The position numbers and the translations under genes are program-made. Shown piece after piece: positions 43,042 to 59,678 of a stretch of DNA of 64,000 nt; within the stretch, counting starts at the first letter, position 1; each line of letters opens with the position of its first letter. Source of the stretch: an uncultured SAR86 cluster bacterium (lineage in GTDB: Bacteria > Pseudomonadota > Gammaproteobacteria > Magnimaribacterales > D2472); assembly GCA_905181595.1 (NCBI GenBank), contig CAJIYI010000001.1, positions 688,847-752,846 of the forward strand. Direction: 5' to 3'. The notes under the pieces were generated by a model, which did not search any database, was not told the DNA's origin, and saw only the letters and a program-made list of their open reading frames with translations.

Positions 43042-43047
43042 CTACTT

Positions 43048-43929
43048 ATGAAAAATAAATTATTCGACCTGGCTATTATTTTTATTGGATACGTCGTCTG
43101 CATCTATTCAATGGTGATCACATGGAATCTACTTATAGAAACTAATATCTTCGTTAGATTATTAGCCTGTCATGTCGAAGCAACTATCTTTATATATATA
43201 TTGAGTGTCGCATTTAAAAATTCGAGTTGGTACGATGCATTTTGGTCTGTCATTCCAGTCGTATTAACTATTTTATGCTGGATTGATATACATGCTGCAG
43301 GGAATGTACTTAGAGCAGGAATGATGTTTGATGTAATGGTTTTTTGGGCAATTAGATTAACCTATAACTGGGCTAGATCATGGGATGGATTTACTCATGA
43401 AGATTGGCGTTATGTCATGATGAAAGGGAAGGCTAAAAATAAATTTGAGTACTTTTTAACCGACTTCGGAGCCATACATCTAATCCCAACATTATCAGTG
43501 TTTATGGCCTTACTGCCAATGAATTACACTCTGTATTATCCTGGTCCTGAAGTATTCTGGTTAGATTGGGTGGCTTATGCTATTGGTATATCAGCGGTAT
43601 TTATTCAAATTATCTCTGATCAGCAAATGTATAACTTTAGACGGACATTAATTGAGCCTCAAACAATGCAATCAGGGCTATGGTTTTATTCACGTCATCC
43701 TAATTATCTTGGCGAAATACTCTTTTGGTTTAGTTTCTTTATTTTCTCTTTATCTAACGGTTTAGCAGCTTCATGGCTGATTATTGGCACAATTACTATG
43801 TACGCATTGGTTGCCATTACTTCTGTTGCTATGATGGATAGTAGATCTTTGCAAAGACGTCATGATTTTAAAGATTACATGGATACGACCCCTGCAATAT
43901 TCTTTAACTTTTTTAAGAGGAAAGCCTAA
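43048..43929 (+). CDS. DUF1295 membrane protein (steroid 5-alpha-reductase-like)
   Basis: NSSWYDAFWS, EDWRY, GLWFYSRHPNYLGEILFW. Confidence 0.85.
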   Translation: MKNKLFDLAIIFIGYVVCIYSMVITWNLLIETNIFVRLLACHVEATIFIYILSVAFKNSSWYDAFWSVIPVVLTILCWIDIHAAGNVLRAGMMFDVMVFWAIRLTYNWARSWDGFTHEDWRYVMMKGKAKNKFEYFLTDFGAIHLIPTLSVFMALLPMNYTLYYPGPEVFWLDWVAYAIGISAVFIQIISDQQMYNFRRTLIEPQTMQSGLWFYSRHPNYLGEILFWFSFFIFSLSNGLAASWLIIGTITMYALVAITSVAMMDSRSLQRRHDFKDYMDTTPAIFFNFFKRKA

Positions 43930-45230
43930 TGCGTTATTTTTTTAGCTTACTAACTTCATTGTTTCTGATTTTACCAATTTGCTCGGGAGAACTGGCCTCT
44001 GCTTTGGATCAAAATCTAAGTGGTGTGATGACCAAGGTCACTGATTGGAGGCATCATTTTCACCAATACCCAGAGCTATCTAATAGAGAGTTTAAAACGC
44101 AAAAATCTATCAGTGAAGCTCTTATTGAAATGGGTCTTGAGCCTAATACCTCATTTGGTAAAACTGGAGTAACTGCATTTATAAGAGGCCAAAATCCAGG
44201 GCCTTTAATTGCATTAAGAGCAGATATTGATGGGTTGCCAGTGACTGAAAAATTGAATCTTCCATTTTCATCAAAAGAAAGAACTAACTATCAGGGCAAT
44301 GATGTTGGAATTATGCATGCGTGTGGCCACGATGCTCATATAGCAACTCTTTTGGGTGTTGCTAGCTTCCTGTCACAAAATACTGACAAACTAGATGGCG
44401 ATATTCTATTAATCTTTCAACCGGCAGAAGAGGGCGCACCTGAAGGAGAAGAGGGAGGGGCTGAATTAATGTTAAAAGAAGGGCTCTTTGAAGCTGAAAA
44501 ACCAGATGCTATTTTTGGTATGCATGTTTCCAATGCCAAACATGGACAACTTTGGACAAGACCAGGGCCAATTATGGCTTCCGCAGAAGCTTTTAGGATT
44601 ACAGTTGAGGGCAAACAAACGCATGGATCGCGTCCATGGAATGGTGTCGATCCTATTGTTGCTGCCTCTGATATCGTTACTACTTTGCAAACTATTGTTA
44701 GCAGAAGACTAAATCTTCTTGATAGCCAAGCTGTAGTGACCGTAGGCATCATGAAAGGCGGCACCAGAAATAACATTATTCCAGCAAGTGCTTATTTAGA
44801 AGGAACTATTAGAACGTTTAAAGACTCTTATGCAGATCAAATTAGAGATGAAATATCTGTTATTGCTAATAATATTGCTGCTGCTCATCATGCCAAAGCT
44901 AATGTCGAGTTCAAAGTCTATGGTGGCTATCCAGTAACCTATAACGATATTGAGCTAGTAGATAAGTATGCATCTTCTCTATCTAGAGCAGCTGATGGTA
45001 ATTATTATGAGGCTAAGGTTCCAAGGACAGGCGCTGAGGACTTCTCATTCTTTGCCCAGCAAGTGCCAGGAATGTTCTTTTTCTTGGGAGTTAATTCGCC
45101 TGGAGTAGAAGATTCTCCTACGAATCATTCACCATATTTTTATGTTGATGATTCAGCCCTTACAAATGGCTTGAAAGCTTTTGTGAATCTAGTTGAAGAT
45201 TTTTCCAAAGACTATAATTTAGATAATTAG
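43929..45230 (+). CDS. M20D amidohydrolase
   Basis: HQYPELSNRE, ALRADIDGLP, MHACGHDAH, FQPAEEG, AEDFS, NHSP. Confidence 0.9.
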   Translation: MRYFFSLLTSLFLILPICSGELASALDQNLSGVMTKVTDWRHHFHQYPELSNREFKTQKSISEALIEMGLEPNTSFGKTGVTAFIRGQNPGPLIALRADIDGLPVTEKLNLPFSSKERTNYQGNDVGIMHACGHDAHIATLLGVASFLSQNTDKLDGDILLIFQPAEEGAPEGEEGGAELMLKEGLFEAEKPDAIFGMHVSNAKHGQLWTRPGPIMASAEAFRITVEGKQTHGSRPWNGVDPIVAASDIVTTLQTIVSRRLNLLDSQAVVTVGIMKGGTRNNIIPASAYLEGTIRTFKDSYADQIRDEISVIANNIAAAHHAKANVEFKVYGGYPVTYNDIELVDKYASSLSRAADGNYYEAKVPRTGAEDFSFFAQQVPGMFFFLGVNSPGVEDSPTNHSPYFYVDDSALTNGLKAFVNLVEDFSKDYNLDN

Positions 45231-45272: not shown

Positions 45273-46136
45273 CTAGGTATATTTTCTGTTATGAACTTTA
45301 GCAACAAGATTGGCTAAATGAGGGTTAAATTTATCTGGAAATGCCTCCTCAATAGTTTGTTCGTGATCAACAAAGTTTAAGATACCCTCTTTATAGCTAG
45401 GTCGAGCTTGTAGATTTTTCCAATAGCTTGATATCTTAGGAAATGTATCCATCTGAAGAACTGGGCCTAAGCCAAGCTCCTCCAATCTATTGAAACAGCA
45501 CATTAGATTAATATCTGCATGACCAAAGTCATCAAATAAAAACCCTTGATCGGATAACTGATTCTCAATTTCAAATAAGCCGTTAACAAAGGATTCATAG
45601 GCCAAAGGACCAATTTTATTTTTTATAGATAAAAAATACATCATAACAAAAACAACTTTCCTCTCCCTTCTGGGGTGATTGAAAATGATATTTAAAATTG
45701 TTTTTAGGCTAAGTTTTTTAATAAGGACTTCAATTAAACCGGTTGAGAAGAGTGGTATTGATGTTCCAAAACTTTGCCCAAGTTTTACGCTTTCATCAAT
45801 CGTTGTGTCGTAGACCCATTTTCTTAAGGTTTCTTTTTTTTTTGGATCTAAAGGCCACAAATTTATTGCATTATTTCCTTGATACTCATCTAATCTCTCA
45901 ATAATGTAGGCACTATCTCTTACGAACTCATTGTTTATTTTAAGAACAGGTACGACACCTGTTGGATTAATCTCTTTTAGAAAGTCTTCGCTAATGTTCT
46001 CTGCCTCATCGTGCTGATCACAGAGTTTGATTACCTTGTGATCATACTCAAGCCCTTTTTCATGAAGGGCTACTCTTACCATTTGACTACAAAGCGACCA
46101 CTTTGCATGATACAAAAGAAGATTGGGCTTGCTCAT
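45273..46136 (-). CDS. Glutathione S-transferase family protein (long, PcpC/LigF/GDAP1-like)
   Basis: LYHAKWSLCSQMVRVALHEKG, INPTGVVPVL, DSAYI, HADI. Confidence 0.82.
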   Translation of the reverse strand: MSKPNLLLYHAKWSLCSQMVRVALHEKGLEYDHKVIKLCDQHDEAENISEDFLKEINPTGVVPVLKINNEFVRDSAYIIERLDEYQGNNAINLWPLDPKKKETLRKWVYDTTIDESVKLGQSFGTSIPLFSTGLIEVLIKKLSLKTILNIIFNHPRRERKVVFVMMYFLSIKNKIGPLAYESFVNGLFEIENQLSDQGFLFDDFGHADINLMCCFNRLEELGLGPVLQMDTFPKISSYWKNLQARPSYKEGILNFVDHEQTIEEAFPDKFNPHLANLVAKVHNRKYT

Positions 46137-46138
46137 TA

Positions 46139-47047
46139 CTAATCGTCGTTAGCAGGCATTTTACCTTTAAGAAACTCTGGTATGTGTGATACGTTACTAT
46201 GATCTGCAATTCTTAAGCATTGATTTTCTATGGTTCCAATGCCCTTGATAGTTGTTGACAATATATCCCCGTCCTTTAAACACTTACCTTGAGTTGCGCC
46301 AACACCAGCAGGCGTTCCTGTAAAAATTAAATCTCCAGGCTCTAAAGTGATAAATTCTGATACATAAGAGATGATATATGGGATATCAAAGATTAAGTCA
46401 TTGGTATTATCTTTTTGTCTTAATTCACCATTAACTGAGCACTCTAATTCCAAAGAGTTTGGATCTTCAAATTCATCTGGAGAAACTAAAATTGGTCCTA
46501 TTGGCCCAAAGGTATCAAATGATTTACCAAGATTAAACTGTGGAGGTGTAGCATGAAATTGAACCGCTCTATCTGATATATCCTGACCAACTGTAAGTCC
46601 TGCAACATGATCCCAGGCGTTTTCTTTTGATATGTTTTTACCTTCTTTGCCAATTACTGCTACTAATTCTGCTTCGTAGTCGACAAGATCACTTCTCATT
46701 TCTATGTTTTCAAATGGCCCAACAATACATGAAGTATGCTTTGTAAATATCATAGGGAAGAGTGGAATTTCCATTCCTGATTCTTCGGCATGGTTTTTAT
46801 AATTTAGTCCAACAGCAAAACAATTTCTTGAATTAGTTATCGGTGCTCCCATGCTCTCATTCGTGATTGTTCCTGAGGGTTCAAAATCATCGATCTGAGT
46901 GTATAGCTTTGACAGAGCATCTAATGAATTTATTGATTGCGAGGGATCATTTGAGAGCGCTCCATTTGAAATATCGGATAGCTCATAATAGCTTTCATTT
47001 TTGATTAACGCTGCGTTTCCATTTACATTACCTAACTTAAAACCCAT
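46139..47047 (-). CDS. Fumarylacetoacetate hydrolase family protein
   Basis: VGLNYKNH, DYEAEL, QDISDR, GKSFDTFGPIGP, PGDLIFTGTPAGVG. Confidence 0.92.
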   Translation of the reverse strand: MGFKLGNVNGNAALIKNESYYELSDISNGALSNDPSQSINSLDALSKLYTQIDDFEPSGTITNESMGAPITNSRNCFAVGLNYKNHAEESGMEIPLFPMIFTKHTSCIVGPFENIEMRSDLVDYEAELVAVIGKEGKNISKENAWDHVAGLTVGQDISDRAVQFHATPPQFNLGKSFDTFGPIGPILVSPDEFEDPNSLELECSVNGELRQKDNTNDLIFDIPYIISYVSEFITLEPGDLIFTGTPAGVGATQGKCLKDGDILSTTIKGIGTIENQCLRIADHSNVSHIPEFLKGKMPANDD

Positions 47048-47093
47048 GTTTTCTCTCCTTAAAAGTAGCTTAACTAAGCGATTTTAGCGATGA

Positions 47094-47172
47094 GACCATG
47101 AACACAGATAAGGGGGTCTGCATTCATGGTCCAAAGAAACCTTAACAACTTCTCTTAGGAAGAAGGGTTAAG
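47094..47172 (-). other. Two tandem RNA hairpins between the TonB-dependent receptor and FAH genes
   Basis: Minus strand: CTTAACCCTTCT-TCCTAAG-AGAAGTTGTTAAG, then GACCATGAATGCAGA-CCCCCTTA-TCTGTGTTCATGGTC (15-bp stem with two G-U pairs). Confidence 0.6.
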
Positions 47173-47188
47173 CGCTATTCCAACACTA

Positions 47189-49657
47189 TTAGAATGATTT
47201 TCTAATAGATATACCGAACTGTTTGCCTGGCTCCCACAATTTGAAGAAAGACCCAGGTGTTAATGGAAGTGCTAAGCTCGAAGATCCAACGATTTCATCG
47301 GTAACATTTTTACCAAAGAGTTTGATTTCAAGACCGTTTTCCATCATCAATCTTACATTTAGATCTATCTTAGTAGAGGCATCATGGTCACCAGCAGGGT
47401 CCGCAACTCCAGTACTATTAAATTCACTCACGTAATTTGCAGCAATTGTGTAAACCAATTCACTGCCACCACTCAATGATGAGAAGTAATTAGCGTACAT
47501 GCTAGCCGATGTCTCAGGAGCAAAATTACCCGCTTTTCCTGCAAGATCTTGAGTACATTGTCGTGCAGCTCTTCCAGCAGGTGTTGACGGCCAAGTTGCT
47601 GGTCTGGCAGCTCTGTATGCCACATCTTGATCGCCTGTACATGCAGCAGTGAAAGCTCCGTATGCAAAATCAAGCGTAGTAATTGAACCGCCAATAATTA
47701 GGCTATCTGTTGGAGCCCAAGTAGTATCAACTTCAAAACCTGTAATCTCGGCTTCTGCAGCATTAGAGACAATAAACGTCGAGCCATTAAATGCTGATAC
47801 TTGCATGTCCTTATAATCCGTTGAGAAATAAGCAGCATTGAACCTTAGATTATTCTCAGGCATATCCATTTTAGCTCCCATCTCAAATGTAGTGGCTTCT
47901 TCTGGCTTAAATGCGAATGCAGGAGATGGTGTAGTTGCATTTGTTCGTCCAGCATTTTCAGAACCATCGTATCCGCCTGCTTTGTAACCTTCAGCATAAC
48001 TAGCATAGAGCCTTGTAGTATCTGACATCTCGTAAGTTACTTTCACCGAGGGAGTTGTGTGACTTTCTGATCTACTTTGCTTTGGGAAGTTGTAGGGTAA
48101 TCTTCCTAGCAATGCATTATGAAGTCCTGCAACTACAGGATTAGCTGTTGGATTATTAATTCCAATGCCACCAGTTGTAGTGGAACTATTTACTTGTGAA
48201 GCTTTAACATCTTTCTCATCTTCTGAGACACGAACACCAGCAATAAATGTTAATTGATCGCTTAGGTACCAAGTTCCCTCAAAAAATGCAGATAAGCTGC
48301 TTGATGTTTCATCAAATAAAGTGTGTGTTGCGCTTTGTGGTGTTGAAAATCTAAATTGGGGGGGGTTAAGTCTGGTTTGGAAAGCAGCAATATCTGGTAA
48401 CCCAAATGACTTTGCAAATTCTCCACCTACAGATAAGTCAAACAATCCATTGTTTGCAACATCCATCTCGATCTCTTCATAGTAAACCCCAGCAATGTAT
48501 TCAAAACTTTCACTAGAAGGAGATGTAATGACGAATTCCTGAGAGAATTGTTCAAATTCATTAAAGTTATCAGTTGAGAGAAAATCTAACGGTCCAAAGT
48601 CGGCATCTAAACCCCAACCATAATCATAAGTTGAAAAAGATGTCGTTGATTTAACATCAAAGTCACCCCATGTTGATGAGATATTTAAAATCACGTTGTC
48701 CGAATCAACCGATCCACCTGTAGGTAAACCAGCGCTAGTATTATCTAAATAAGTAATACCAGGTTGTCCAACTACTTGATTTGGAAAGGCTCTTGCCATA
48801 ATGCTTTGTGAAATAAACGTTGCCGTATAGCCATATCTAGCCATTAATCCGACGGGTACAGGTGTTCGATATGTATCGGTGCCTCCATGTTGACCAGCTT
48901 TTTCATGTGATGAGGTGAATGCTTTTAAGTTTATCTCAGCATTATCAAGCTGCCATAAAAATGTTGCTCTTAAAGCTGTGCTTTCGCTTGAAGGCCCATC
49001 TTCTTTAAGTAAAGCGTTGTATGTCCAACCATCTGACTCTTCTACGGTCGCTGCTAGCCTCATTGCAAATGTATCGCTGACAGGGAAACTTGAAGCCGCT
49101 TGCACTTTAATGGTGTTCCATTCAGGAACTGTCTCAATTGACCAATGTCCATCTGCATCACCGCCTATGACGGGAGATTTGCTGACCATGTTTACGACTC
49201 CACCAATTGTATTCTTGCCAAACAAAACACCTTGCGTACCTTTTAAGACTTCTACTCTTTCAACATCTAATAAGGCTGATAAGTATTGTTCGCCTCTGGC
49301 AATGGGCATGCCATCAATAAATTGAGTAACTGATTGAGAAAATCCTTTATTTGTTCCTGAGCCAACACCTCTAATATAAATATTAAACTGCGCGGCACCT
49401 TTATTAATCATTAACCCTGGTACATGGGTTTGCAGATCTTCTAAGCTTGTAATCCCGAGGCTGTCTATTCTATCGCCTGAAAGTACTTGAATAGAAATCG
49501 GAACCTCTGATAGCCCTTGTTCCTTTTTTTGAGCCGTAACAACAACTTCTTCAAGTCGAGAATCTGTGCTCTGTGAAAGTATGTTCTGTGAAGAAAAACC
49601 AAGCACCATTAAGCATAAGCTAGATAGATACAAATATTTAGTCGTGAATATTTTCAT
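47189..49657 (-). CDS. TonB-dependent receptor
   Basis: Signal peptide, LEEVVVTAQK TonB box, DVERVEVLKGTQGVLFGKNTIGG plug motif, C-terminal Phe. Confidence 0.95.
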   Translation of the reverse strand: MKIFTTKYLYLSSLCLMVLGFSSQNILSQSTDSRLEEVVVTAQKKEQGLSEVPISIQVLSGDRIDSLGITSLEDLQTHVPGLMINKGAAQFNIYIRGVGSGTNKGFSQSVTQFIDGMPIARGEQYLSALLDVERVEVLKGTQGVLFGKNTIGGVVNMVSKSPVIGGDADGHWSIETVPEWNTIKVQAASSFPVSDTFAMRLAATVEESDGWTYNALLKEDGPSSESTALRATFLWQLDNAEINLKAFTSSHEKAGQHGGTDTYRTPVPVGLMARYGYTATFISQSIMARAFPNQVVGQPGITYLDNTSAGLPTGGSVDSDNVILNISSTWGDFDVKSTTSFSTYDYGWGLDADFGPLDFLSTDNFNEFEQFSQEFVITSPSSESFEYIAGVYYEEIEMDVANNGLFDLSVGGEFAKSFGLPDIAAFQTRLNPPQFRFSTPQSATHTLFDETSSSLSAFFEGTWYLSDQLTFIAGVRVSEDEKDVKASQVNSSTTTGGIGINNPTANPVVAGLHNALLGRLPYNFPKQSRSESHTTPSVKVTYEMSDTTRLYASYAEGYKAGGYDGSENAGRTNATTPSPAFAFKPEEATTFEMGAKMDMPENNLRFNAAYFSTDYKDMQVSAFNGSTFIVSNAAEAEITGFEVDTTWAPTDSLIIGGSITTLDFAYGAFTAACTGDQDVAYRAARPATWPSTPAGRAARQCTQDLAGKAGNFAPETSASMYANYFSSLSGGSELVYTIAANYVSEFNSTGVADPAGDHDASTKIDLNVRLMMENGLEIKLFGKNVTDEIVGSSSLALPLTPGSFFKLWEPGKQFGISIRKSF

Positions 49658-49691
49658 AAATTCCCCATAAATTTTAATTAAAGAATTATCT

Positions 49692-49731
49692 TAGCCACTT
49701 GGTTAGGAAATTACAACTATCCAGTTGGATA
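49692..49731. promoter_or_regulatory. Two putative operator sites in the divergent receptor/GST promoter
   Basis: TAGCCACTTGGTTA (49692-49705) and TATCCAGTTGGATA (49718-49731), imperfect palindromes matching the site at 56183. Confidence 0.55.
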
Positions 49732-49771
49732 AAATATGAATATATGTTTTACTGTTTTTTAGAAGATTCAA

Positions 49772-50653
49772 TTGAAACTTATGCAAAACCTTGAATTATA
49801 TGGATATGGTGAGTCTGTAGCCTCAAATATGGCTAGAGTAGCCCTTGCTGAAAAAAAGATATCTTACCAATATAATCTTGTCTATCTAGAGTCTAAAGGA
49901 GATCATTTAACCAAAGAATATAAAAAATTAAATCCTAAAAATCTTGTACCCACTCTTGTTGATAATGGTGTTCCCATACCTGACAGCATCAAAATAATGA
50001 GACACATCGATTCAAGTCATCCTCAAAAGGGAGAAATTTTATTTCCAAATACAGTAGACATAGAAACTTTTGAAAATTTATTAGATTTTGTAAGTTTAGA
50101 TGAAAACAAGGAACTTGGAGATACCTTGGGAACAACTGCTGGCGGTATTTCAGCTCAAATTTTAGTAAAAATGCTATGCAAGAGACCTATCATTGCCATA
50201 ATTTGGGATTATTTAACGAAACATTCAATTAAGAAGAGGGTACCAATATTCATACTCTTACGAATTCTTGGAAAGCCACCAAAGAGCTTAAGCGAAAAGA
50301 TGGCTGTAATGCTCGCAAAACATCTATTAACTGTTGAGGAGGTACTAAGTCATCAAAAAAAATTTATGATGGGTGATGCTTACACCGCGATTGACTGTTG
50401 CATGACATCGATACTTCATAGGGTTCAAGAAATGCGTTTTGGCAGCGTCTTAATGAGCGATAAATTACCAAATTTAAAAAATTACTGGGAAACACTATCA
50501 AGCAGAAATAGTTACCAAGCAGGTATTCTTGATTACGTTACTGGAGAATGGGCGCCAGAAATCACTGCACTATATGGAGATGGCCCCAGTGAATACGACG
50601 ATTTGGTTTGGTCTGAAATTAATAATTTACTAGCAAAAGGAGAAAATAAATGA
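49772..50653 (+). CDS. Glutathione S-transferase family protein (paralogue of 45273-46136)
   Basis: SVASNMARVALAEKK, LNPKNLVPTLVD, DSIKI; shares a (L)GxxLGT-type segment with the other GST. Confidence 0.82.
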   Translation: MKLMQNLELYGYGESVASNMARVALAEKKISYQYNLVYLESKGDHLTKEYKKLNPKNLVPTLVDNGVPIPDSIKIMRHIDSSHPQKGEILFPNTVDIETFENLLDFVSLDENKELGDTLGTTAGGISAQILVKMLCKRPIIAIIWDYLTKHSIKKRVPIFILLRILGKPPKSLSEKMAVMLAKHLLTVEEVLSHQKKFMMGDAYTAIDCCMTSILHRVQEMRFGSVLMSDKLPNLKNYWETLSSRNSYQAGILDYVTGEWAPEITALYGDGPSEYDDLVWSEINNLLAKGENK

Positions 50654-51753
50654 ATACACCAATATGCAAGATAGCAGATATTATCTATGTAAGATTTGAG
50701 CTTGTTGAATTAGAGGCCCAAAAAAAATACTTAAATCACTTTGGTATGATGTTAGCTCACGAAGATGAAAATAGTATCTATTTTAGAGGCACTGGAAGCT
50801 CACCTTTTATCTATGTAGCAACCAAGGGTCCCGAAAATAAATACATAGGATCAGCATACAAGGCTAATAACTTTTCTGATCTAGAGGCACTGTCCAAAGA
50901 ATTTGATGTTGATATTGTTGCAAATACTGAACCTGGGGGAGGTCACAAAGTTACTGTGATAGATCCTGATGGTATCGAGGTCGAAGTGTGTCACGGTATG
51001 AACGAAGCAGAACCAATAGCCGTTGTTTCAAAAGTTTTAAATACAGGTCAATCTAAGCAGAGGGAAAATGAATTGCAGCGTTTTGGAAAAGCGGCGGATG
51101 AGTGGCAAGTGCATGGTGATAAGTGGGTCTATGAATTATCTTCAAAAGTTAAGCGATTGGGTCATACAGCAATTAACTGTAAAGATGCTCAAGCTTCAGT
51201 TGATTGGTACGCAAATGTTTTAGGTTTTTTAATAAGTAATAATTGCATTGGGCCTGATGGCACTTCTATGGGAGCTTTTATGAGGTGTGATCAAGGCGAT
51301 AAACCGGTTGATCATCACACCATGAATAACATGGGCCTACCTGGCGAAGGTGGTGCTTTAGCCTATGGTCATGCGGGTTATGAGGTACAAGATTCAATAG
51401 ATGATTTGATGGCTGGACATTACCACATGAAAACCGTTGATGAGTATTATCATGAATGGGGCATTGGAAGACACTTGCTGGGCAGTCAAATGTATGACTA
51501 TTGGCGTGATCCTCATGGTTTTACTCATGAGCATTGGACCGATGGCGACCTAATGGATGCGTCAATTCCTACAGAAAATTCAGGGTTTAGAGATCTCGCT
51601 ATGGCTCAATATGGCCCAGAAGTTCCCAACACATTTGGTATAACCATGCCGATCGATCAAATTGATAAAGCTCGCGCAGCACATCCTACAATTCCTGGAA
51701 TGATTAAAGAAATGGAAAAGGCTGCTAAGGCAGAAACAGAGGAACAATCATGA
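50650..51753 (+). CDS. VOC-family extradiol dioxygenase (trihydroxytoluene oxygenase DntD-like)
   Basis: DPDGIEVEV, KRLGH, FMRCDQGDKPVDHHT, HEWGIGRHLLGSQMYDYWRDPHGFTHEHWTDGD. Confidence 0.85.
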   Translation: MNTPICKIADIIYVRFELVELEAQKKYLNHFGMMLAHEDENSIYFRGTGSSPFIYVATKGPENKYIGSAYKANNFSDLEALSKEFDVDIVANTEPGGGHKVTVIDPDGIEVEVCHGMNEAEPIAVVSKVLNTGQSKQRENELQRFGKAADEWQVHGDKWVYELSSKVKRLGHTAINCKDAQASVDWYANVLGFLISNNCIGPDGTSMGAFMRCDQGDKPVDHHTMNNMGLPGEGGALAYGHAGYEVQDSIDDLMAGHYHMKTVDEYYHEWGIGRHLLGSQMYDYWRDPHGFTHEHWTDGDLMDASIPTENSGFRDLAMAQYGPEVPNTFGITMPIDQIDKARAAHPTIPGMIKEMEKAAKAETEEQS

Positions 51754-52412
51754 TAGAACTTTCTGAACAACAAAAAAAAGCAGTTGCTGAAGCCCAAGTA
51801 ACATTCAAGAACTTAAAGGATAATGCAAAAAAATTAAACCAGGAACAGATGAATCTATTGTTTGGTGAGGCCAGAAGTATGAATGGGTGGCAAGACAAGG
51901 ACGTTTCTGACGAAATGGTTAAGTCAATTTATGAATTGACTAAAATGGGCCCAACAAGCACAAATTGCTGCCCAGCAAGATTTAAATTTATTAAAAGTGA
52001 AAAGCATAAGCAATTATTAAAAGATGCATTGCTGCCTAACAACGTAGATAAAGTTATGTCTGCACCAGTGATTGCTGTTATAGGGTATGACCTAGATTTT
52101 TCAGATCATATGGGGAAATTGTTTCCTCACATGGACGTTGCTCCAATGTACAAGGGAAATCAAGAGTTCAATTATTCAGCTGCATTTAGAAATAGCAGTC
52201 TTCAAGGAGCATACTTCATGATGGTTTGTAGAGGCTTAGGTCTTGATTGCGGTCCTATGTCAGGGTTCAGTAACGAGTTGGTAGATAAAACTTTTTTTGA
52301 AAATACCAATATCAAATCGAACTTTCTGTGCTGCATTGGTTACGGTGATTCAGCAAAGATCTTTCAAAGATTACCGCGCTTAGATTTTGATGAAGCCTGT
52401 GAAATTATCTAG
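51750..52412 (+). CDS. Malonic semialdehyde reductase (RutE-like nitroreductase)
   Basis: LFGEARS.NGW, GPTSTNCCPARF, AFRNSSLQGAY, GLDCGPMSGF, RLPRLDFDEAC. Confidence 0.85.
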   Translation: MIELSEQQKKAVAEAQVTFKNLKDNAKKLNQEQMNLLFGEARSMNGWQDKDVSDEMVKSIYELTKMGPTSTNCCPARFKFIKSEKHKQLLKDALLPNNVDKVMSAPVIAVIGYDLDFSDHMGKLFPHMDVAPMYKGNQEFNYSAAFRNSSLQGAYFMMVCRGLGLDCGPMSGFSNELVDKTFFENTNIKSNFLCCIGYGDSAKIFQRLPRLDFDEACEII

Positions 52413-53961
52413 ATGACCTAAACTTCTTTGTGGCATAAATGCTCACAGAAATAGCTAGCAACAAAGCTAGCAAATAGTACTTAAAGGACAAAATAATTAC
52501 CCAGAGCATGATAAAAAAACTAGCAACAGGTGATGGGTATTCGGATATTTCGTAGTCTCTATCAAGCCAAGGTAGGCCAATAACATCTCCACCCTCTGAG
52601 TCGCCGTAATAATATGTGTGAGCTGGATTAATTAAGGGCATGCTCTTAGATTTATCTATATTTTTCATGTAGGCTGTCATGTCCTCAAAAATCTTCACCT
52701 CAAGGTTAGATAAATCATTAGATTCAAAGGGATCATCAACTATATTGAACAAACTGTAAGTTCCATTTGAGCCGGGGAACATTGAAGGTTTGCGATAATG
52801 GAGTTTCCACTCATCTTTATATAATGCCTGTTCATCAAAAACAATTTGAGCTCCTATAAGATCATTATCAGGCGGAGTGATTTCCCCATTAATTAAATTT
52901 TTCCATTTATCACTTCCATCAAAGACCACTGACTTATCGATGTCAATGCCTACGGCAGTGAGTAATGTTGGGAGTAAGTCCTGAACAAACATAAATTGAT
53001 CTGTTGCTGAGTTTTCAATAACTCCTTGCCACCAAATACTTGCTGGCACTCTAACTCCTCCTTCTAAAGCAGATGTTTTGCTGCCCTTTAATCCGGCTGT
53101 ATTTCCCTTTGATTTTGTTAGCCCAGGCGCTAAGGTTGCAACAATTGGATTTATATCAACAACAGGACCGTTGTCACTAAAAAAAACAATGATAGTTTCC
53201 TTTAGAAGGCCTTGATCCTCGATGGATTGAATTATTTTTCCAATTTCAGTATCCAAAGCATTCACATTAGCTGCATAAGCCCTTATTAGGGGATCTTCTA
53301 TGTGACTAAAAGATTCTATGTTGGAAGGGGGGGCTTGAATTGGAGTATGAGGAGCATTGAATGCTACGTAAAGAAATAGGGGGCGATGAATATCTTTATT
53401 TTCAATGATTCTAACTGCCTCATCTGCAATAAGTGTGGTTGAATAACCTTCCTCGATTAGAGGCTCTTCATTTCTGTGCCAATCCATTCTTTTTGCAGCA
53501 ACATGATCAAAATAACCAATTCCACCAAGCATGTGACCATAACTTGTATCGAATCCTCTATTGGTAGGCCAAAAAGCTTCATCATGCATCCCTAAATGCC
53601 ATTTTCCAGACAGTGCAGTTTGGTATCCTGCCTCCCTAAAATATTGAGGCATTATTTTTAAATCTGGAGACAACCCAAATTGCTCGGCAGTTGGATTTTG
53701 AAAGGGCCTCACCACGCCGTGATTAAATATATGCAGGCCAGTCAATAACGAAGCTCTTGTTGGACTGCATACTGGATTCGCATAAAATCTATTTAACTCC
53801 AAACCTTTTGAAGCTAGTCTGTCCATATTGGGAGTAGGGATGTGACCTCCATGATATGAGACGTCACCCCAACCCAGGTCATCAGTGAGAATTATTACCA
53901 CATTGGGCTGTGAATATATTGGAGCACTGAACAGTGCGATTAGCAGTATTAATCTTTGCAT
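52405..53961 (-). CDS. Arylsulfatase (Cys-type) with C-terminal membrane anchor
   Basis: PNVVIILTDDLG, CSPTRASLLTG (CxPxR), GKWHLG, NAPHTP, SDNG, EGGVRVP; hydrophobic C-terminus followed by KKFRSSR. Confidence 0.9.
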   Translation of the reverse strand: MQRLILLIALFSAPIYSQPNVVIILTDDLGWGDVSYHGGHIPTPNMDRLASKGLELNRFYANPVCSPTRASLLTGLHIFNHGVVRPFQNPTAEQFGLSPDLKIMPQYFREAGYQTALSGKWHLGMHDEAFWPTNRGFDTSYGHMLGGIGYFDHVAAKRMDWHRNEEPLIEEGYSTTLIADEAVRIIENKDIHRPLFLYVAFNAPHTPIQAPPSNIESFSHIEDPLIRAYAANVNALDTEIGKIIQSIEDQGLLKETIIVFFSDNGPVVDINPIVATLAPGLTKSKGNTAGLKGSKTSALEGGVRVPASIWWQGVIENSATDQFMFVQDLLPTLLTAVGIDIDKSVVFDGSDKWKNLINGEITPPDNDLIGAQIVFDEQALYKDEWKLHYRKPSMFPGSNGTYSLFNIVDDPFESNDLSNLEVKIFEDMTAYMKNIDKSKSMPLINPAHTYYYGDSEGGDVIGLPWLDRDYEISEYPSPVASFFIMLWVIILSFKYYLLALLLAISVSIYATKKFRSSR

Positions 53962-54559
53962 TACTTTTTCTCTTAAGTCTATTTAGACCTAAGCTCCTGC
54001 CTTCAATAAATAGTTTCATAAATACTTTCATTTCCTTGTCGGAAATCTTTAATGCTTGGGTAATGTATGGTTTTGATGCTGCTAAACCAAACTCCATTAC
54101 AGTAACTAAAGCTATAGCAGCTTTTTCTTCAGCCGATGGTTTTGATGCACCTCTTAACTTAGCCAATTCATTTAAGGTTTTCTTAGCCACTGATAGCCCT
54201 GAGTCTTGTTGAATTGTAAGCAAATCCATTTGGCCATCAAGCACTGCTCTAATTAGAGCATTAAAATAATTATCCGTTAGTTCAGAGAGAGGCTCTTCAC
54301 CTAAGTCCATGGCACTAATATTCCGCCTCTCTATTTGTTGCATGTGGGTAAAAGCTAATTGTTTGTAGGTTGCCTCAAGCAATCCCTGTTTACCACCAAA
54401 GTAATGATGAATTTGAGCATGATTTACTCCTGCATGCTCTGCAATATCTCTTATCGATAATCTCGAAGGGCCAATAGTCCCAAGTAACTCAGCCGCAGAA
54501 TCAATCAGTATTTTCTCGACGTTTTCTCTGCCCTTATACTTGTTTTTTATCTTGTCCAT
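53961..54559 (-). CDS. TetR/AcrR family transcriptional regulator
   Basis: LIDSAAELL...SIRDIAEHAGVNHAQIHHYFGGKQGL helix-turn-helix; true stop probably TAA overlapping the sulfatase ATG. Confidence 0.88.
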
Positions 54560-54565
54560 GTAATG

Positions 54566-56142
54566 TTATTTAGACAATTCGTTTTGAAGTTGTTCTGTGA
54601 GTTTTTCCATTTTAAATAAAAGATTCTCTTTATCACAACAACCATATATGTGTTTATCTGGTCTGACAATAACTGCAGATATTTGATTATCATTAATCCA
54701 CTTAAGTAATTTGCCGTCTGACATAAAAGGATGATTGGTATCGAATACGTGAATATTCTCATTAAAGAATTTCAAAGGATGACTAATTGAGAGTTTTTGC
54801 TTGAGGGATTCTTCATTGCTGAAAACTATAAGTGCAAATGAATCATTGATGTATTGATCAAATTTTTTATTTTCAACCTTTATATTAATATCAGGCTGGG
54901 GAATGATTACACCATTAACATTATTGGGATATAAATCTTTATCTATAATGCCGTTATTGAATTTCCAACTATATTGAAACTTTAAGGCCGATAAGGCAGC
55001 AGGGAATTTTTTAGCAATCGCAAAAAATGTATCTCTCATAAAGGACTTGAATCTATCCTGACTGCCAATGACTTCACCTTGCTTCATTGCTGTTCTGATC
55101 ATGAAATCATTAATCTCTTGTCTTTCTATATCATATGAATTCAAGACCATTGGATTAAATAGACCATTTCTTACGCCATCTAATTTCCAACATAAATTGT
55201 ATGAATCTTTGATGCCCTGACAAAGACCTTGACCAAGAAAAGGAGGTGTCTGATGAGCTGCATCACCAATTAAAAAACAGTTATTCAATTTAAAGTTTTC
55301 CACCAACAAGCCGTGAAAAGTATATTTACTTGAGCGTATAATTTTGCCACTATTAACATCGATTTTAGGATTAATTCTCCACAGATGAGGCTTCATCCAC
55401 TCTCTAATATTATCTTCTGCTTCCAATTGCGCGACATCATCGCTGGGATTTATTTTGAATTCCCATCGAATATGGTTATCAGTAATTGGTAAGAGGGTTG
55501 TTGGTCTTTTGTAGTCACAAATTTGATACCTAGCTTTGTCTAGAATTTCGTACTTATCATCAACCAAATAATCAACGACCACCCAATCTTGATCGCAACC
55601 ATAATCATGCATTTTTATGCCGAGATGCTTTCTTACAAAACTATCTGCACCATCAGCTCCAATTACATAGGTTGAAGTATAAGGAGTAATTTCATGAGTT
55701 TCTTGATTGGTTACCTCAAGGTTATTGTGATTCTCCAGCGCCTCTAAGTTGCTAAGGGATGATCCTAATTTAAATTCGATATTTTCATATTTTTGAGCGC
55801 GGTGTCTTAGGATTGATTCAAATTTTGGCTGATTGAACATAACGCCTTCATAATATCCATTTAGCTTAGGATGATCTTCAAAACCAACACTCAATAATGT
55901 CTTGCCATTTCTATTTAAGAAATTAACACCTTTAATAGGATCTATTATTTTTTCAACCTCATCAAAGATACCCATAGATTGAAAAATTCTTTGAGTTTGG
56001 CCATCAAAATGAACGGCTCTTGGTATATCCCAAATTTCTTTTTAGGATCAATTACTATAATGCTGAAACCTTTGTTGGCAAAAATATTTGCTGCAGCTGC
56101 ACCAACAGGACCAAAACCAATTATTGCTATATCAAAATGCAT
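54566..56142 (-). CDS. FAD-dependent aromatic hydroxylase (MhpA-like), frameshift near 56040
   Basis: GFGPVG, PRAVHFDG in the shifted frame, QPKFE, GADGADSFVR, GDAAHQTPPFLGQGLCQGIKD, VRPDKHIYG. Confidence 0.88.
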
Positions 56143-56182
56143 TAGTATGTATTTTTTATGAAATGATTAAATTGCTTTATTT

Positions 56183-56196
56183 TAGTCAACTGGTTA
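56183..56196. promoter_or_regulatory. Putative operator in the divergent hydroxylase/mmsA promoter
   Basis: TTAGTCAACTGGTTAGGA versus TTAGCCACTTGGTTAGGA at 49691. Confidence 0.55.
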
Positions 56197-56252
56197 GGAT
56201 AGTCAATCTAATTACTTGTGGCATTATAATACGATAGGGAGAGGAGAAAGAA

Positions 56253-57737
56253 ATGTATAAAGTTGATAATTACATAAACGGAGAGGGGTGTTCTGTCTCC
56301 AATGAATCTTCTAAAATAATCAATCCATCCTATGGCACGCAAATAGGAGAAGTCTTGTATGCCAACAATGAATCAGCTAATAGGGCTGTTGACGCAGCTT
56401 ATGAAGCATCTAAGTTATGGGCAAAAACTGGATTAAGCTATCGAGCTGAATTAATCCTTAAGTTTAGACAAGGCATAATTAATAGATCAACTGAAATAGT
56501 GGATATATGTGTTAGCGAAGCTGGTAAAACTCGACCGGATGCTGAGGCTGAGCTTGATAGAGCAGTGCAAGCTTTAACCCATGCTTCAGGAGTCCAGCAT
56601 TTTTTAACAACCAACTTTAGTCAAAACGTTGCGGGCGGAATAGATATTGCAGATTTAAGGTTTCCAATTGGGGTTATTGCTGGAGTAGGACCTTTTAATT
56701 TTCCAATTTTAATTCCTATATTGCATAGCGCTATGGCTATAGTTACAGGCAATACTTACATAGCCAAGCCAAGCGAAAAAGTTCCCTCAATCTCAAGATT
56801 ATTTGCAGATATATGGAATGCAGCTGGATTGCCGGATGGTTGTTTTAATGTTCTCAATGGGCAAAAAGAAATAGTAGAACTTTTGGTTCGTCATGAAAAA
56901 GTTGCAGGTCTAGCTTTCATCGGCAGCACGGCAGCTGCCAAAAGTCTAAAAATGCTCGGTGTTGAGCACAACACTAAAGTTCAAGCTCTTGGAGGAGGCA
57001 AAAATCATATGATTGTTCTTCCTGATGCTGACTTAGACATGTCAGCAGATGCTGCGGTGTCTGCAAGCTTTGGTGCTGCAGGTCAAAGATGCATGGCTGT
57101 ATCTGTTGTTGTTGCTGTTGGAGATATTGCAGATGATTTAATCTCAAAAATTCAAACAAGAATACCAAACCTAGTGATGGGTGTGACCGATGATGCTAAC
57201 ACTCAACTCGGACCAGTGATCTCAAAAGAGAATAGAGATAAAATCTACTCATTTATTGAGAGTGCTGAACCCGATGGAGCATCAGTTGTAATTGATGGAA
57301 GGAAGAGATCTGATGAGTTAAATGGATGCTTTGTTGGGCCCACTCTAATAGATCATGTCAAACCGGGAATGTCTGTATACGAAAATGAAATATTTGGTCC
57401 TGTATTGTGTTTTGTAAGGGCTGAAACTTACGATGAAGCTATGGAAATTACGCATGGTCATAAACTAGGAAATGGTGCTGCTTTATTTACCAGAGATGGA
57501 GGCGTTGCCAAAAAATGGTCTGAAGAAATTCAAGCTGGTTCAGTTGGTATAAATGTTCCAATTCCATTACCCACATATTCTCATAGCTTTGGAGGCTGGA
57601 AGGATAGCGGTTTCTCAGAGACCAAAGCATTTGGGCCATCATCTATTGATTTTTATACACAAACAAAATCTTTAACTACCCGTTGGCCTAATCCAGCGGA
57701 TAGTAAAGTTGATTTAGGTTTCCCTAGAAATGATTAA
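56253..57737 (+). CDS. mmsA: CoA-acylating (methyl)malonate-semialdehyde dehydrogenase
   Basis: PFNFP, KPSEKVP, GGKNHMIVLPDAD, FGAAGQRCMA, EIFGPVL, VGINVPIPLP, FGGWKDS, TTRWP. Confidence 0.88.
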   Translation: MYKVDNYINGEGCSVSNESSKIINPSYGTQIGEVLYANNESANRAVDAAYEASKLWAKTGLSYRAELILKFRQGIINRSTEIVDICVSEAGKTRPDAEAELDRAVQALTHASGVQHFLTTNFSQNVAGGIDIADLRFPIGVIAGVGPFNFPILIPILHSAMAIVTGNTYIAKPSEKVPSISRLFADIWNAAGLPDGCFNVLNGQKEIVELLVRHEKVAGLAFIGSTAAAKSLKMLGVEHNTKVQALGGGKNHMIVLPDADLDMSADAAVSASFGAAGQRCMAVSVVVAVGDIADDLISKIQTRIPNLVMGVTDDANTQLGPVISKENRDKIYSFIESAEPDGASVVIDGRKRSDELNGCFVGPTLIDHVKPGMSVYENEIFGPVLCFVRAETYDEAMEITHGHKLGNGAALFTRDGGVAKKWSEEIQAGSVGINVPIPLPTYSHSFGGWKDSGFSETKAFGPSSIDFYTQTKSLTTRWPNPADSKVDLGFPRND

Positions 57738-57790
57738 TTAATGGTCAGAGTAAATCTGTCGACGGCAGCAGCTCTGATTATCTTTTATGA

Positions 57791-57910
57791 GATATAGTCG
57801 AGACTTGGGCAAACACTAAACAAGTCGCTGTAAAAGGTAACCATTTAATTTAAGAAGATACACCAGAGGATATTAAAAGGTACGTTAAAGACATTCTAGT
57901 ATCTTTATAG
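57791..57910 (+). pseudogene. C-terminal remnant of a haloalkane dehalogenase-like alpha/beta hydrolase
   Basis: Reads DIVETWANTKQVAVKGNHLI*EDTPEDIKRYVKDILVSL, resembling the LinB/DhaA C-terminus (TWPNQTE..V.G.HF.QEDSPDEIG); internal TAA where CAA (Gln) is expected. Confidence 0.6.
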
Positions 57911-58089: not shown

Positions 58090-59678
58090 TTAATTGTTAC
58101 TTCCATTATATCCTGGGCCTCGAAGAACCCTACCAGGCTTATTTCCATTATGAACACCTTGATCAATAACAATTTCCCCATTAACTATTACTGAGATAAC
58201 TCCAACTGCATACTGATGCGGATCCTCGAATGTTGCTTTATCTAGTATGGTTTTAGGATCAAATATAGCTATATCCGCATAATAACCCTCTTTAATTAGC
58301 CCTCTTTGTTTTATGGACAATATTTGTGCTGGCAAGCTGGTCATTTTTCTTACAGCTTCTTCTAAGCTTAAAATATTGCGTTCTCTGACGTAACTACCTA
58401 ATACGCGGGCAAAAGTACCATAGGTTCTAGGATGTGGTGAGCCAACACCAAAGACTGTCATAGGACCATCAGATGCTATAGATGTCATTGGATGCTGCAT
58501 GATTAAATCAACGTCATCAGAATTAATAGCGTGATAGACAGCTGAGGCACCTCCTCCTTTAATTATGTCAAAGACAACCATTGCTGCGTTGTAAGGACTT
58601 GGCTCTAGATCTCTTTCAATACAAAGCTCAGCAAGGTTCTTACCTTCCAGTGATGTATTCCAAGAGCTCTTTGAGATAAAGATATTTTTAGGGTGCCCGC
58701 CGCCTCTATCAAATAATATCCTCTCAATAATTTCATCTACTATTAGTTTGCGCGTCTTGGGATCATCTATGCGTTGAAGAAGGTCTATTCTGCCACCAGC
58801 TTGAGCCCATTGAGGTATCAAGGCTCTAATAGACGTTTGGGATGCAGTATATGGATATTGATCAATACTGACTTGAACACCATCTTTAATAGCATTATCC
58901 ACCAACTTCAAAGTTTCCTTTGATAGACCCCAATTCTCTTTGCCTATGATCTTATGGTGAGTTATCTGAACTGGAATCTTAGCTTTAATGCCAATATTGA
59001 TAGTTTCATTGATTGATTTCAAGACATCGACTGCCTCTTCCCTCATATGAGAGATATAGATTCCACCATAGCGAGAAGCAACCTTAGATAGTTCAATTAC
59101 CTCGCTAGTTGAAGAGAAGCTTCCAGGCACATAGAAAAGACCAGTAGATATGCCCAAAGCGCCCTCTTCCATAGCTTCTTTAACCATCAACTTCATCTTG
59201 AATAGCTCAGAAGCTGTCGGATCTCTGTTCTCCAGACCCATAACCTCTTGCCTAATTGTCCCTTGACCAACAAATACCGCCCAATTTGGACTAATTTCTA
59301 GTATTTTCTATTTTTTGGTAATGCTCTTTAATTGGAAACGGGGATGTCCCGTCATTCCCATCAGTTAGGGTTGTTACTCCTTGCAGCAATGAACTTTCAG
59401 CCGTAGGAACATCAAAAATACCTCTAATTGCGTGAGTATGTGAATCTATAAAACCTGGAGATACAATTAAATTATCAGCATTTATGATGTCGAACTGATT
59501 TAGACGTTGATAGATCTCCTATCTTTACAATACGATCATCAACAATTCCTATATCAGCTTGATAGCTCATCTGCCCAGAACCATCAACTATAGTTCCATT
59601 AGATATTATTATGTCGAATTCATTTTTTGAACATCCAACAAAGATAAAAGAAATTATTATTAATTGAGCTATTTTCAT
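58090..59678 (-). CDS. N-acyl-D-amino-acid deacylase (D-aminoacylase), lipoprotein, frameshifted in the 5' part
   Basis: FVGC lipobox, IVDGSG, PGFIDSHTH, QGVTT, GISTGLFYVPG, SHMREE, DQYPY, HPRTYGTF, EAVRKMTSLPA. Confidence 0.88.

Follow-up and report, generated by a model that had tools for sequence, protein, structure and literature searches.

A conserved, operator-linked gene cluster of a SAR86 bacterium and related marine bacteria with a putative role in the catabolism of sulfated aromatics

We analysed a 64,000-nucleotide (nt) stretch (the window) of the genome of an uncultured SAR86 cluster bacterium (GenBank assembly GCA_905181595.1) and found at positions 45273-57737 a set of ten genes that, judged from comparative sequence evidence, is one conserved, co-regulated unit. 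The genes encode a TonB-dependent receptor, an FAH-family protein, two glutathione S-transferases (GST1 and GST2), a two-domain VOC protein, a RutE-type flavoprotein, an S1 sulfatase, a TetR regulator, an MhpA-like flavin adenine dinucleotide (FAD) monooxygenase (the hydroxylase) and MmsA, an aldehyde dehydrogenase of the methylmalonate-semialdehyde dehydrogenase (MMSDH) type. All ten, with their families, had been named in an earlier account made from the letters of the DNA (the sequence-only reading), and all were recovered at this position with Pfam and NCBIfam models. Gene content, conservation and a shared operator, as well as the fold and active-site residues of a putative ring-cleavage dioxygenase, could be read directly from the data. 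With moderate confidence, we interpret the cluster as a TetR-controlled catabolic regulon of a small-genome marine gammaproteobacterium, the substrate of which is, most likely, a sulfate ester of an aromatic compound taken up from outside the cell.

A more specific version of this interpretation is tentative. The cluster may represent an undescribed regulon for sulfate-esterified phenolics of the hydroxyquinol or resorcinol type, found in abundant small-genome marine Gammaproteobacteria and some marine Alphaproteobacteria, in which a scaffold of receptor, anchored sulfatase, TetR, FAH-family protein, RutE and MmsA is combined with swapped alleles of the hydroxylase and the VOC protein. Its extradiol route to pyruvate and malonate semialdehyde would then be a natural counterpart of the Dnt lower pathway of 2,4-dinitrotoluene degraders.

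Conservation of the cluster and its shared operator

The ten open reading frames (ORFs), assigned with the ORF list and Pfam/NCBIfam, form four transcription units around two divergent intergenic regions. The first minus-strand unit contains the receptor (47189-49657; plug and beta-barrel domains; 822 amino acids (aa)), the FAH-family protein (46139-47047; PF01557, 230 bits; 302 aa) and GST1 (45273-46136; Pfam GST_N_3, GST_N_2 and GST_C; 287 aa), and the divergent plus-strand unit contains GST2 (49772-50653; Pfam GST domains; 293 aa), the VOC protein (50650-51753; 367 aa) and the RutE-type flavoprotein, a member of the nitroreductase family (51750-52412; 220 aa). The second minus-strand unit comprises the hydroxylase (54566-55975 as the window ORF, 54566-56142 with an out-of-frame N-terminus; PF01494), TetR (53882-54559; 225 aa as encoded in the window) and the sulfatase (52405-53961; PF00884, 198.5 bits; 518 aa); MmsA (56253-57737; 494 aa) stands alone in the second plus-strand unit.

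Related loci (80 from species genomes and 80 from metagenomes) were collected and then searched by tblastn with the window proteins (E values up to 1e-8, alignment over at least 30% of the query), which gives hits at the level of families and no proof of orthology. Co-occurrence was counted only where the sequence extends at least 5 kb to either side of the VOC gene, up to a flank limit of 10 kb. The sequence-only reading had staked itself on the genes occurring together in other genomes, and they do: FAH, receptor, GST2, RutE, sulfatase, TetR, hydroxylase and MmsA were each present in 9/9 loci with a VOC protein at least 85% identical and in 4/4 loci at 70-85%, so that all eight other families recur in 13/13 related marine contigs with VOC identity of at least 70%. 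Among named records, the closest one to carry this cluster is the metagenome-assembled genome (MAG; locus L001) of a Mediterranean gammaproteobacterium.

At 60-70% VOC identity (n = 8), MmsA was found in all eight loci, the receptor, GST2 and RutE in seven each, the sulfatase, TetR and hydroxylase in six each and FAH in two. Gene order differs here, with sulfatase and hydroxylase on one strand and MmsA, receptor, GST, VOC, RutE and TetR on the other. In a Cellvibrionales MAG of this group, the 10-kb limit falls just short of FAH (63%), TetR, the sulfatase (41%) and a further GST; the whole set is therefore kept in a different gene order at 35-67% protein identity. Because FAH sits just beyond the edge in this genome, the low FAH count of the group is at least partly an effect of the flank limit, and loss of FAH (2/8) was rejected as an explanation in the one genome that we extended.

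At 45-60% identity (n = 6), FAH was found in six loci, GST2 and the hydroxylase in five each, the receptor and sulfatase in three each, TetR and MmsA in two each and RutE in one. Among alphaproteobacterial loci, three (L005, L006 and L008) carry hydroxylase, FAH, GST, a carboxymuconolactone-decarboxylase (CMD)-family protein and VOC in this order, and a fourth (L007) keeps FAH, GST and VOC by tblastn; a sulfatase is nearby in two of the four (L005 and L006). The CMD-family (AhpD-like) gene, which lies between GST and VOC in L005, L006, L008 and L009, has no counterpart in the window.

Below 45% identity (n = 39), the VOC protein is ~308 aa long and comes from Alphaproteobacteria, Actinomycetota and Burkholderiales. 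FAH and the hydroxylase were each found in 33 of these loci, the sulfatase in five, GST2 in two, the receptor and MmsA in one each, and RutE and TetR in none. Across loci L010-L080, the short VOC gene is directly beside genes for an FAH-family protein and an FAD monooxygenase in 33/39 cases, and an acyl-CoA synthetase gene follows VOC and FAH in a Burkholderia stagnalis plasmid and follows hydroxylase and VOC in a Microvirga plasmid. The triad of short VOC, FAH and monooxygenase looks widespread, and we found no characterised member of it. Based on these locus counts, VOC, FAH and hydroxylase are the old core, to which GST, receptor, sulfatase, TetR, RutE and MmsA were added in the marine long-form branch.

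A single operator motif, TA-N-Y-CA-NN-TGG-N-TA (TANYCANNTGGNTA), connects the units. Within the window it occurs only at 49692-49705, 49718-49731 and 56183-56196, which amounts to five strand matches compared to 0.39 expected, a number reached in 0/100 shuffles. Two 14-bp palindromic sites, TAGCCACTTGGTTA and TATCCAGTTGGATA (49692-49731), lie in the divergent region between receptor and GST2, and the third, TAGTCAACTGGTTA (56183-56196), lies between hydroxylase and MmsA. Perfect palindromes of the same type (TATCCAATTGGATA and TAGTCAATTGACTA) are found in the orthologous receptor/GST2 region of the Mediterranean MAG. When the motif was broadened to TADYCANNTGRHTA, 148 matches were found in 1.0 Mb of 89 related loci compared to 1-7 in ten shuffles, and these sites are not independent events, many of the loci being near-copies. 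Nearly all of them (146/148) lie no more than 350 nt from the 5' end of one of the cluster genes, at positions between receptor and GST2, between hydroxylase and MmsA, upstream of FAH and, in four loci (L111, L114, L145 and L158), upstream of a separately transcribed sulfatase. The half-site varies between groups (TAACCA, TATCCA, TAGTCA or TAGCCA) and the positions are unchanged. The shared motif claimed by the sequence-only reading is thus confirmed, at three sites covering both divergent regions of the window and at the same promoters of related contigs.

The TetR protein has a helix-turn-helix domain (PF00440), and its binding to the conserved palindromes at these promoters is predicted. 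For the hydroxylase gene, the best promoter-like match (TTGACT, 16 nt, TAAAAT; 56206-56179, minus strand; 10/12) has the site at 56183-56196 within its spacer, which we use as a consistency check only because such promoter-like matches are not enriched overall. By its recurrence in gamma- and alphaproteobacterial versions of the cluster, and by the operator it carries where transcribed separately, the sulfatase is placed within the predicted regulon.

The putative ring-opening enzyme and its partners

Its sequence and predicted structure indicate that the VOC protein is very probably an active extradiol dioxygenase, with Fe(II) or Mn(II) as the proposed metal, and that it belongs to a subfamily for which we found no characterised member. 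Its AlphaFold2 model (pLDDT 77, pTM 0.82) contains two tandem VOC domains (four beta-alpha-beta-beta-beta modules), and the top Foldseek matches were 3b59, 3lm4, 1mpy, 7q2a and homoprotocatechuate 2,3-dioxygenase (HPCD), with E values from 4.7e-22 to 1e-16; the classical two-domain enzymes (C23O, BphC, AphC and HPCD) rank after 3b59. In alignments, H172, H241 and E294 fall on the metal-ligand positions of BphC, HPCD and 3b59, forming a 2-His-1-carboxylate site in the C-terminal domain. Second-sphere catalytic residues are also present: H223 aligns with the catalytic His of the BphC HHT motif, and Y284 is placed ten residues before E294, as is the Tyr in HPCD. For the reference extradiol enzymes we assumed the customary ligand numbering. 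All five residues (H172, H223, H241, Y284 and E294) are invariant in 13/13 aligned homologues.

Compared to type I extradiol enzymes (XylE, BphC, HPCD and AphC), the VOC protein has the same fold (Foldseek E 1e-17 to 1e-19, TM ~0.6-0.75) with aligned ligands, His and Tyr, but is only 15-20% identical, falls below every NCBIfam equivalog (best HpaD, 52 bits versus a cut-off of 321) and, relative to its ~308-aa relatives, carries an insert of 16-17 residues at ~151-166 and a C-terminal helical extension. Among solved structures, only 3b59, a Mn-bound protein of Novosphingobium that is itself uncharacterised, is clearly related by sequence. It scored 54 bits in a single-sequence search and 89 bits with a profile of 13 sequences, with BphC, HPCD and C23O far behind.

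Several more specific assignments were rejected. The structure of PcpA, a 2,6-dichlorohydroquinone dioxygenase, is in the PDB, and neither a PcpA/LinE-type hydroquinone dioxygenase chain nor any chain listed as 2,6-dichlorohydroquinone dioxygenase was among the 56 matches of the PDB profile search at E up to 1; a PcpA/LinE-like reading, and with it a place in the Pcp/Lin (chloro)hydroquinone pathway, was rejected on this ground. A role in steroid-ring cleavage was discarded based on HsaC (27.6 bits versus a cut-off of 450). Readings as a homoprotocatechuate or catechol meta-pathway were rejected because the aldehyde dehydrogenase is of the MMSDH type (HpaE, 253 bits versus a cut-off of 638; hydroxymuconic semialdehyde dehydrogenase, 248 versus 693) and there is no hydratase or aldolase.

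The VOC family is large, with 506 proteins and more than 590 stretches in species genomes. No name pointing to DntD appeared among the 120 listed homologues or in Atlas clusters, where names are generic, and plasmid matches were labelled only 'VOC family protein' and lie in other gene contexts. When Atlas clusters are ranked by language-model features, several of those nearest to the window protein consist of VOC proteins from fungi (Ascomycota; 318-350 aa), which we note as a lead only.

GST2 always lies directly upstream of the VOC gene, and the pairing of GST with VOC is retained in loci of Gamma- and Alphaproteobacteria. The best solved relative of GST2 is the zeta-class GST 1e6b, for the N-terminal domain only (PDB matches to residues 5-86). 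For the maleylacetoacetate isomerase model maiA (TIGR01262, cut-off 171), GST1 scored 49.9 bits and GST2 75.5 bits over the N-terminus only, and neither gave a full-length match above the cut-off that would mark a maleylacetoacetate or maleylpyruvate isomerase. A zeta-like GST preceding the VOC gene is nonetheless a natural candidate isomerase, and we propose that GST2 could act as a glutathione-dependent isomerase of the ring-fission product. The genome encodes a GshB-like glutathione synthetase at 289.6 bits, just below the cut-off of 299. GST1, with the zeta-like N-terminal motif SLCSQMVRVAL, appears to be a variable member of the cluster. Close relatives (53-71%, with an ORF separate from GST2) were found only in L001, L116, L118 and L152, and none was found in L086 and L087, the contigs closest to the window, in which the hits for M20 and FAH adjoin.

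The best solved relatives of the FAH-family protein are a putative HpcE (6v77, 213 bits), HpaG and L-2,4-diketo-3-deoxyrhamnonate hydrolase (8gsr), and we propose that it may hydrolyse a C-C bond of a 2,4-diketo-acid ring-fission product. The RutE-type protein scored 270.6 bits with the malonic semialdehyde reductase model NF003768 (cut-off 152), and its gene follows VOC in the closer loci. MmsA scored 491.9 bits with the CoA-acylating MMSDH model TIGR01722 (cut-off 448.5), and its translation contains GQRCMA, a motif we take to hold the catalytic Cys. It is the only aldehyde dehydrogenase of the MMSDH type in the genome, the others being at most 30% identical.

At its N-terminus the sulfatase has a signal-like stretch and at its C-terminus a hydrophobic anchor, and it carries a CSPTR motif; all three are kept in 12/12 orthologues at 53-91% identity. 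In seven distant sulfatases (28-44%) CSPTR is kept and a hydrophobic tail was seen in none, with three of these ORFs looking shortened so that their tails cannot be judged. The C-x-P-x-R signature was thus present, as CSPTR, in 19/19 homologues examined. By these features, the enzyme is predicted to face the periplasm and to be held in the membrane via its C-terminal helix. The receptor gene is conserved beside the cluster and the protein matched no NCBIfam model at cut-off; we propose that it could be the importer of the substrate.

The genome carries two Cys-type sulfatases. The other one (35% identical) is located ~29 kb upstream of the window start (locus L166, G000:C1:652000-668000), directly 3' of a gene for a 634-aa FMO-like/Baeyer-Villiger-type monooxygenase, which makes a second sulfatase-oxygenase pairing; a gene resembling indoleamine 2,3-dioxygenase and another related to photolyases are nearby.

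For the hydroxylase, the window ORF begins at profile position 63, and the FAD-binding N-terminus (MHFDIAIIGFGPVG...) is upstream in another frame, to 56142. Of 21 homologues, 20 are full-length (521-536 aa) and read through the frameshift point, and the remaining one (L001) ends at the contig edge. One base is missing in the window near 56039: all four other public assemblies have an extra base at 56038/56039, which restores the frame, and all four are without two bases of the A-run at 53964-53969. These assemblies, which come from four studies, are contigs from three DNA runs and from one run of an RNA library, aligned to the window. Because contigs drop rare variants and some of these runs are possibly the source of the window, we read both indels cautiously, as probable errors or rare variants of this genome and not as gene decay in the population. 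Both (56030-56045 and 53962-53970) are in homopolymer runs, so similar indel errors may be present in other genes of this genome. In nature, TetR is probably ~199 aa long, and its stop would share the sequence TAATG with the start of the sulfatase; the window version continues for 26 more residues across that start, and this tail looks like read-through.

With the MhpA-like subfamily model NF004829 (cut-off 390), the truncated window ORF reached 330 bits and four intact homologues 422, 385, 446 and 449 bits, compared to 119-249 bits with equivalog models for MhpA that have cut-offs of 546-1135. The label 'MhpA-like' chosen in the sequence-only reading therefore holds at the subfamily level and does not extend to MhpA itself.

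Identity along the cluster is mosaic, as seen from comparing the VOC protein and hydroxylase of L083-L087, L116, L118, L128 and L148-L151 with those of the window. Hydroxylase identity is as low as 49-52% in the contigs that otherwise resemble the window most (VOC 95-96%, MmsA 88% and sulfatase 86-91%), compared to 72-73% in contigs with VOC at 77-78%. Conversely, VOC is only 57-58% identical in contigs with MmsA at 87%; in L149 and L150 the values are 58% for VOC, 87% for MmsA and 75-76% for GST2. Hydroxylases were less than 60% identical in 54/182 locus pairs with VOC identity of at least 85%. This pattern suggests that alleles of specificity-determining oxygenases may be swapped between populations within a conserved scaffold.

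A proposed pathway and competing readings

The chemical steps, their order and the substrate are all inferred from the gene families. Uptake and desulfation are placed before the ring steps because a receptor and an anchored sulfatase are part of the cluster. The TonB-dependent receptor would take the compound into the periplasm, where the membrane-anchored S1 sulfatase would strip the sulfate, and the free phenol would enter the cytoplasm without a carrier encoded in the cluster. The MhpA-like flavin hydroxylase would add a hydroxyl group, giving a tri-hydroxylated (hydroxyquinol-type) or catechol-type ring, which the RutE-like flavoprotein may keep reduced. Extradiol cleavage by the VOC protein would open the ring; GST2 would isomerise the ring-fission product with glutathione; and the FAH-family enzyme would cut it into pyruvate and malonate or methylmalonate semialdehyde. 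MmsA would convert the semialdehyde into acetyl- or propionyl-CoA, or alternatively RutE would reduce it to 3-hydroxypropionate. TetR, bound to the 14-bp palindromes of both divergent promoter regions, would come off in response to the substrate or an intermediate. A regulon with two enzymes for (methyl)malonate semialdehyde, an extradiol dioxygenase and an FAH-family enzyme is what would be expected if a hydroxyquinol-type ring were cleaved beside its vicinal diol and the resulting 2,4-diketo compound were split into pyruvate and a semialdehyde of three carbons.

The closest parallel is the Dnt lower pathway of Burkholderia, in which DntG is a member of the FAH family. Each of its roles has one candidate in the window in the same succession of enzyme types, a likeness drawn from described roles and not from sequence. 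As described in two sources (PMC10602510; bioRxiv 10.1101/2020.12.12.420737), DntB is a monooxygenase, DntC a 2-hydroxy-5-methylquinone reductase and DntD a type I extradiol trihydroxytoluene oxygenase that forms 2,4-dihydroxy-5-methyl-6-oxo-2,4-hexadienoate; DntG is a bifunctional isomerase/hydrolase yielding pyruvate and methylmalonate semialdehyde, and DntE is a CoA-dependent methylmalonate-semialdehyde dehydrogenase. Given this logic with DntC, the RutE-type flavoprotein could be either a malonic semialdehyde reductase or a hydroxyquinone reductase. The company of flavin monooxygenase, isomerase/hydrolase and MMSDH around the VOC gene is a likeness of context, not of common descent. The window cluster goes beyond the Dnt system in having a TonB-dependent receptor, a periplasmic sulfatase, separate GSTs (one or two) and TetR with its operator, and it has no nitroarene dioxygenase. 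TonB-dependent import and periplasmic desulfation before cytoplasmic catabolism are also known from loci of the polysaccharide-utilisation type, but the cluster has no glycoside hydrolase or SusD-like protein and its downstream enzymes are those of aromatic ring cleavage. The cluster thus follows a familiar logic of aromatic ring cleavage, with a dioxygenase of an uncharacterised subfamily at its centre and with import and desulfation placed under the same operator.

If the proposal is true, very abundant surface-ocean bacteria with tiny genomes would have a route to consume sulfated aromatics, a poorly charted share of marine dissolved organic matter, and the cluster would be a natural context for the enzyme logic recruited by 2,4-dinitrotoluene degraders. 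The 14-bp operator and TetR offer a handle for finding the inducer. Because the VOC family is large, without a characterised member, and is linked to FAH and hydroxylase in 33/39 distant loci, one assay could annotate hundreds of 'VOC family protein' genes.

A number of points weigh against this proposal. Synteny in the closest group says little alone because these loci share descent. We found no tested activity for any cluster enzyme or member of the VOC subfamily; the GSTs and the hydroxylase reach no NCBIfam equivalog cut-off, and the hydroxylase gene of the window is frameshifted. Hydrolysis is not the sole option for the FAH-family enzyme because the family also includes decarboxylases, isomerases and hydratases, and MmsA, as the sole MMSDH of the genome, may serve other pathways. 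No inner-membrane transporter is encoded in the cluster. Finally, no maturation enzyme for the S1 sulfatase was found in the genome, with no match to PF03781 (FGE) and 21 bits versus a cut-off of 349 for the anaerobic maturase model TIGR03942, a negative that falls short of proving absence in a genome that is 87.6% complete.

The nearest solved relatives of the sulfatase, human ARSB and carrageenan sulfatases, act on carbohydrates and count against an aromatic substrate; steryl-sulfatase is also among the solved matches. The ester might accordingly be non-aromatic (a sugar, a sulfolipid head group or a steroid sulfate), with co-regulation explained by a single compound that supplies both parts (a sulfated glycoside or steroid, for example) or by something unrelated. 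A SAR86 genome paper (PMC11582366) assigns the arylsulfatases of the group to sulfoglycolipids. We nevertheless judge a non-aromatic ester improbable: Pfam/NCBIfam searches and the related loci revealed no glycoside hydrolase, lipase or steroid-core gene in the cluster, the operator lies upstream of the sulfatase where this is separately transcribed, and sulfatase and aromatic core are found together in two classes of bacteria. The pathway outlined by the sequence-only reading stands in part: the unit, the membership of the sulfatase in the regulon, the dioxygenase hallmarks and the two semialdehyde-enzyme cut-offs support it, but the aryl specificity of the sulfatase does not follow from its relatives.

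The combination of VOC protein, nitroreductase-family flavoprotein and two GSTs under one repressor could instead serve detoxification and not growth, with dioxygenase, reductase and GSTs neutralising toxic quinones and hydroquinones. The MhqR regulon of Bacillus subtilis directs VOC dioxygenases and a nitroreductase against such compounds. Such roles are also suggested for orphan ring-cleavage dioxygenases in a SAR116 preprint. Protection of this kind seems unlikely for a regulon that includes an energy-driven outer-membrane importer and a periplasmic sulfatase, in which FAH and MmsA lead into central metabolites and all ten genes of which are retained in a 1.41-Mb genome.

Another reading takes its lead from the GSTs, the N-termini of which resemble maleylacetoacetate and maleylpyruvate isomerases. 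The gentisate pathway uses a hydroxylase, a dioxygenase (usually a cupin), a zeta-like GST and an FAH enzyme, and here the VOC protein would cleave a para-diol ring, the zeta-like GST would isomerise a maleyl-type product and the FAH enzyme would hydrolyse it, leaving MmsA and RutE peripheral. The pairing of a zeta-like GST with an FAH enzyme downstream of a ring-cleavage dioxygenase is indeed common to the window and the gentisate and homogentisate pathways. Unlike those, the window has a VOC and not a cupin dioxygenase, GSTs of ~290 aa with an N-terminal isomerase match below cut-off and linked MmsA and RutE genes that have no counterpart there. The best alignments of the VOC protein are to extradiol enzymes of the catechol type, the catalytic His and Tyr of which it retains, the profile matches listed at E up to 1 include no 2,6-dichlorohydroquinone dioxygenase, and the linkage of MmsA (8/8 loci in the 60-70% group) and the shared operator would be left unexplained; we regard a gentisate- or homogentisate-like route as doubtful.

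The suggestion of the sequence-only reading that the substrate is possibly halogenated found no supporting evidence: halogenated phenolics (for example, bromophenols), with a GST as reductive dehalogenase as in the Pcp and Lin pathways, are very improbable since, although GST1 has a Cys in its zeta-type motif (SLCS), which has a role in dehalogenating GSTs, and co-occurs with the hydroxylase type of the window in L116 and L118, no dehalogenase family was matched with Pfam/NCBIfam, no PcpA-type dioxygenase is related to the VOC protein in the profile search, GST1 has no close hit in the closest relatives and the conserved GST2 has Ala at the Cys position. An algal or seagrass origin of the substrate is a guess.

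Genome context, occurrence and neighbouring genes

The genome consists of two contigs (1.41 Mb, 38% G+C), of which the cluster takes up ~0.9%, and its VOC, hydroxylase and RutE genes are single-copy. This size and base composition would be in keeping with SAR86. We found no description of the cluster as a unit in the literature searched, which did not extend to supplementary tables (for example, Table S5 of PMC11582366) that may list single genes. That SAR86 paper reports catechol 2,3-dioxygenases, arylsulfatases, nitroreductases and many GSTs as separate features.

Positions 54500-57800 occur nearly word for word in 14 marine metagenome runs from six studies, some of which are possibly the source of the window. 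A marine metatranscriptome library contains 94% of the words of this segment, and its contigs cover 45313-57863. This coverage suggests expression, against which it counts that contigs from an RNA library are no proof of transcription; their depth looks higher over the receptor gene, a measure unfit for ranking genes. We conclude that the cluster is real and conserved, and probably expressed.

Two flanking genes were considered as further members and rejected. The M20 amidohydrolase gene (43929-45230) and the amidohydrolase gene at 58090-59241 both have no operator site, and their linkage to the cluster is confined to the closest relatives. The former belongs to an apparent operon (40618-45230) with genes for a fused CofG/CofH FO synthase and a DUF1295 protein, and the M20 protein has a signal-like N-terminus. 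The fused FO synthase scored 980.3 bits, below the cut-off of 1018, and the separate CofG and CofH domain models pass theirs. The operon as a whole likewise lacks operator sites, and only in the closest relatives does it accompany the cluster. Lastly, an inverted repeat, GACCATGAA...TTCATGGTC (47094-47131, minus strand; 9 bp with a 20-nt loop), lies between the receptor and FAH genes; it may form an RNA hairpin and is not a typical terminator, because it is followed by no T-run.

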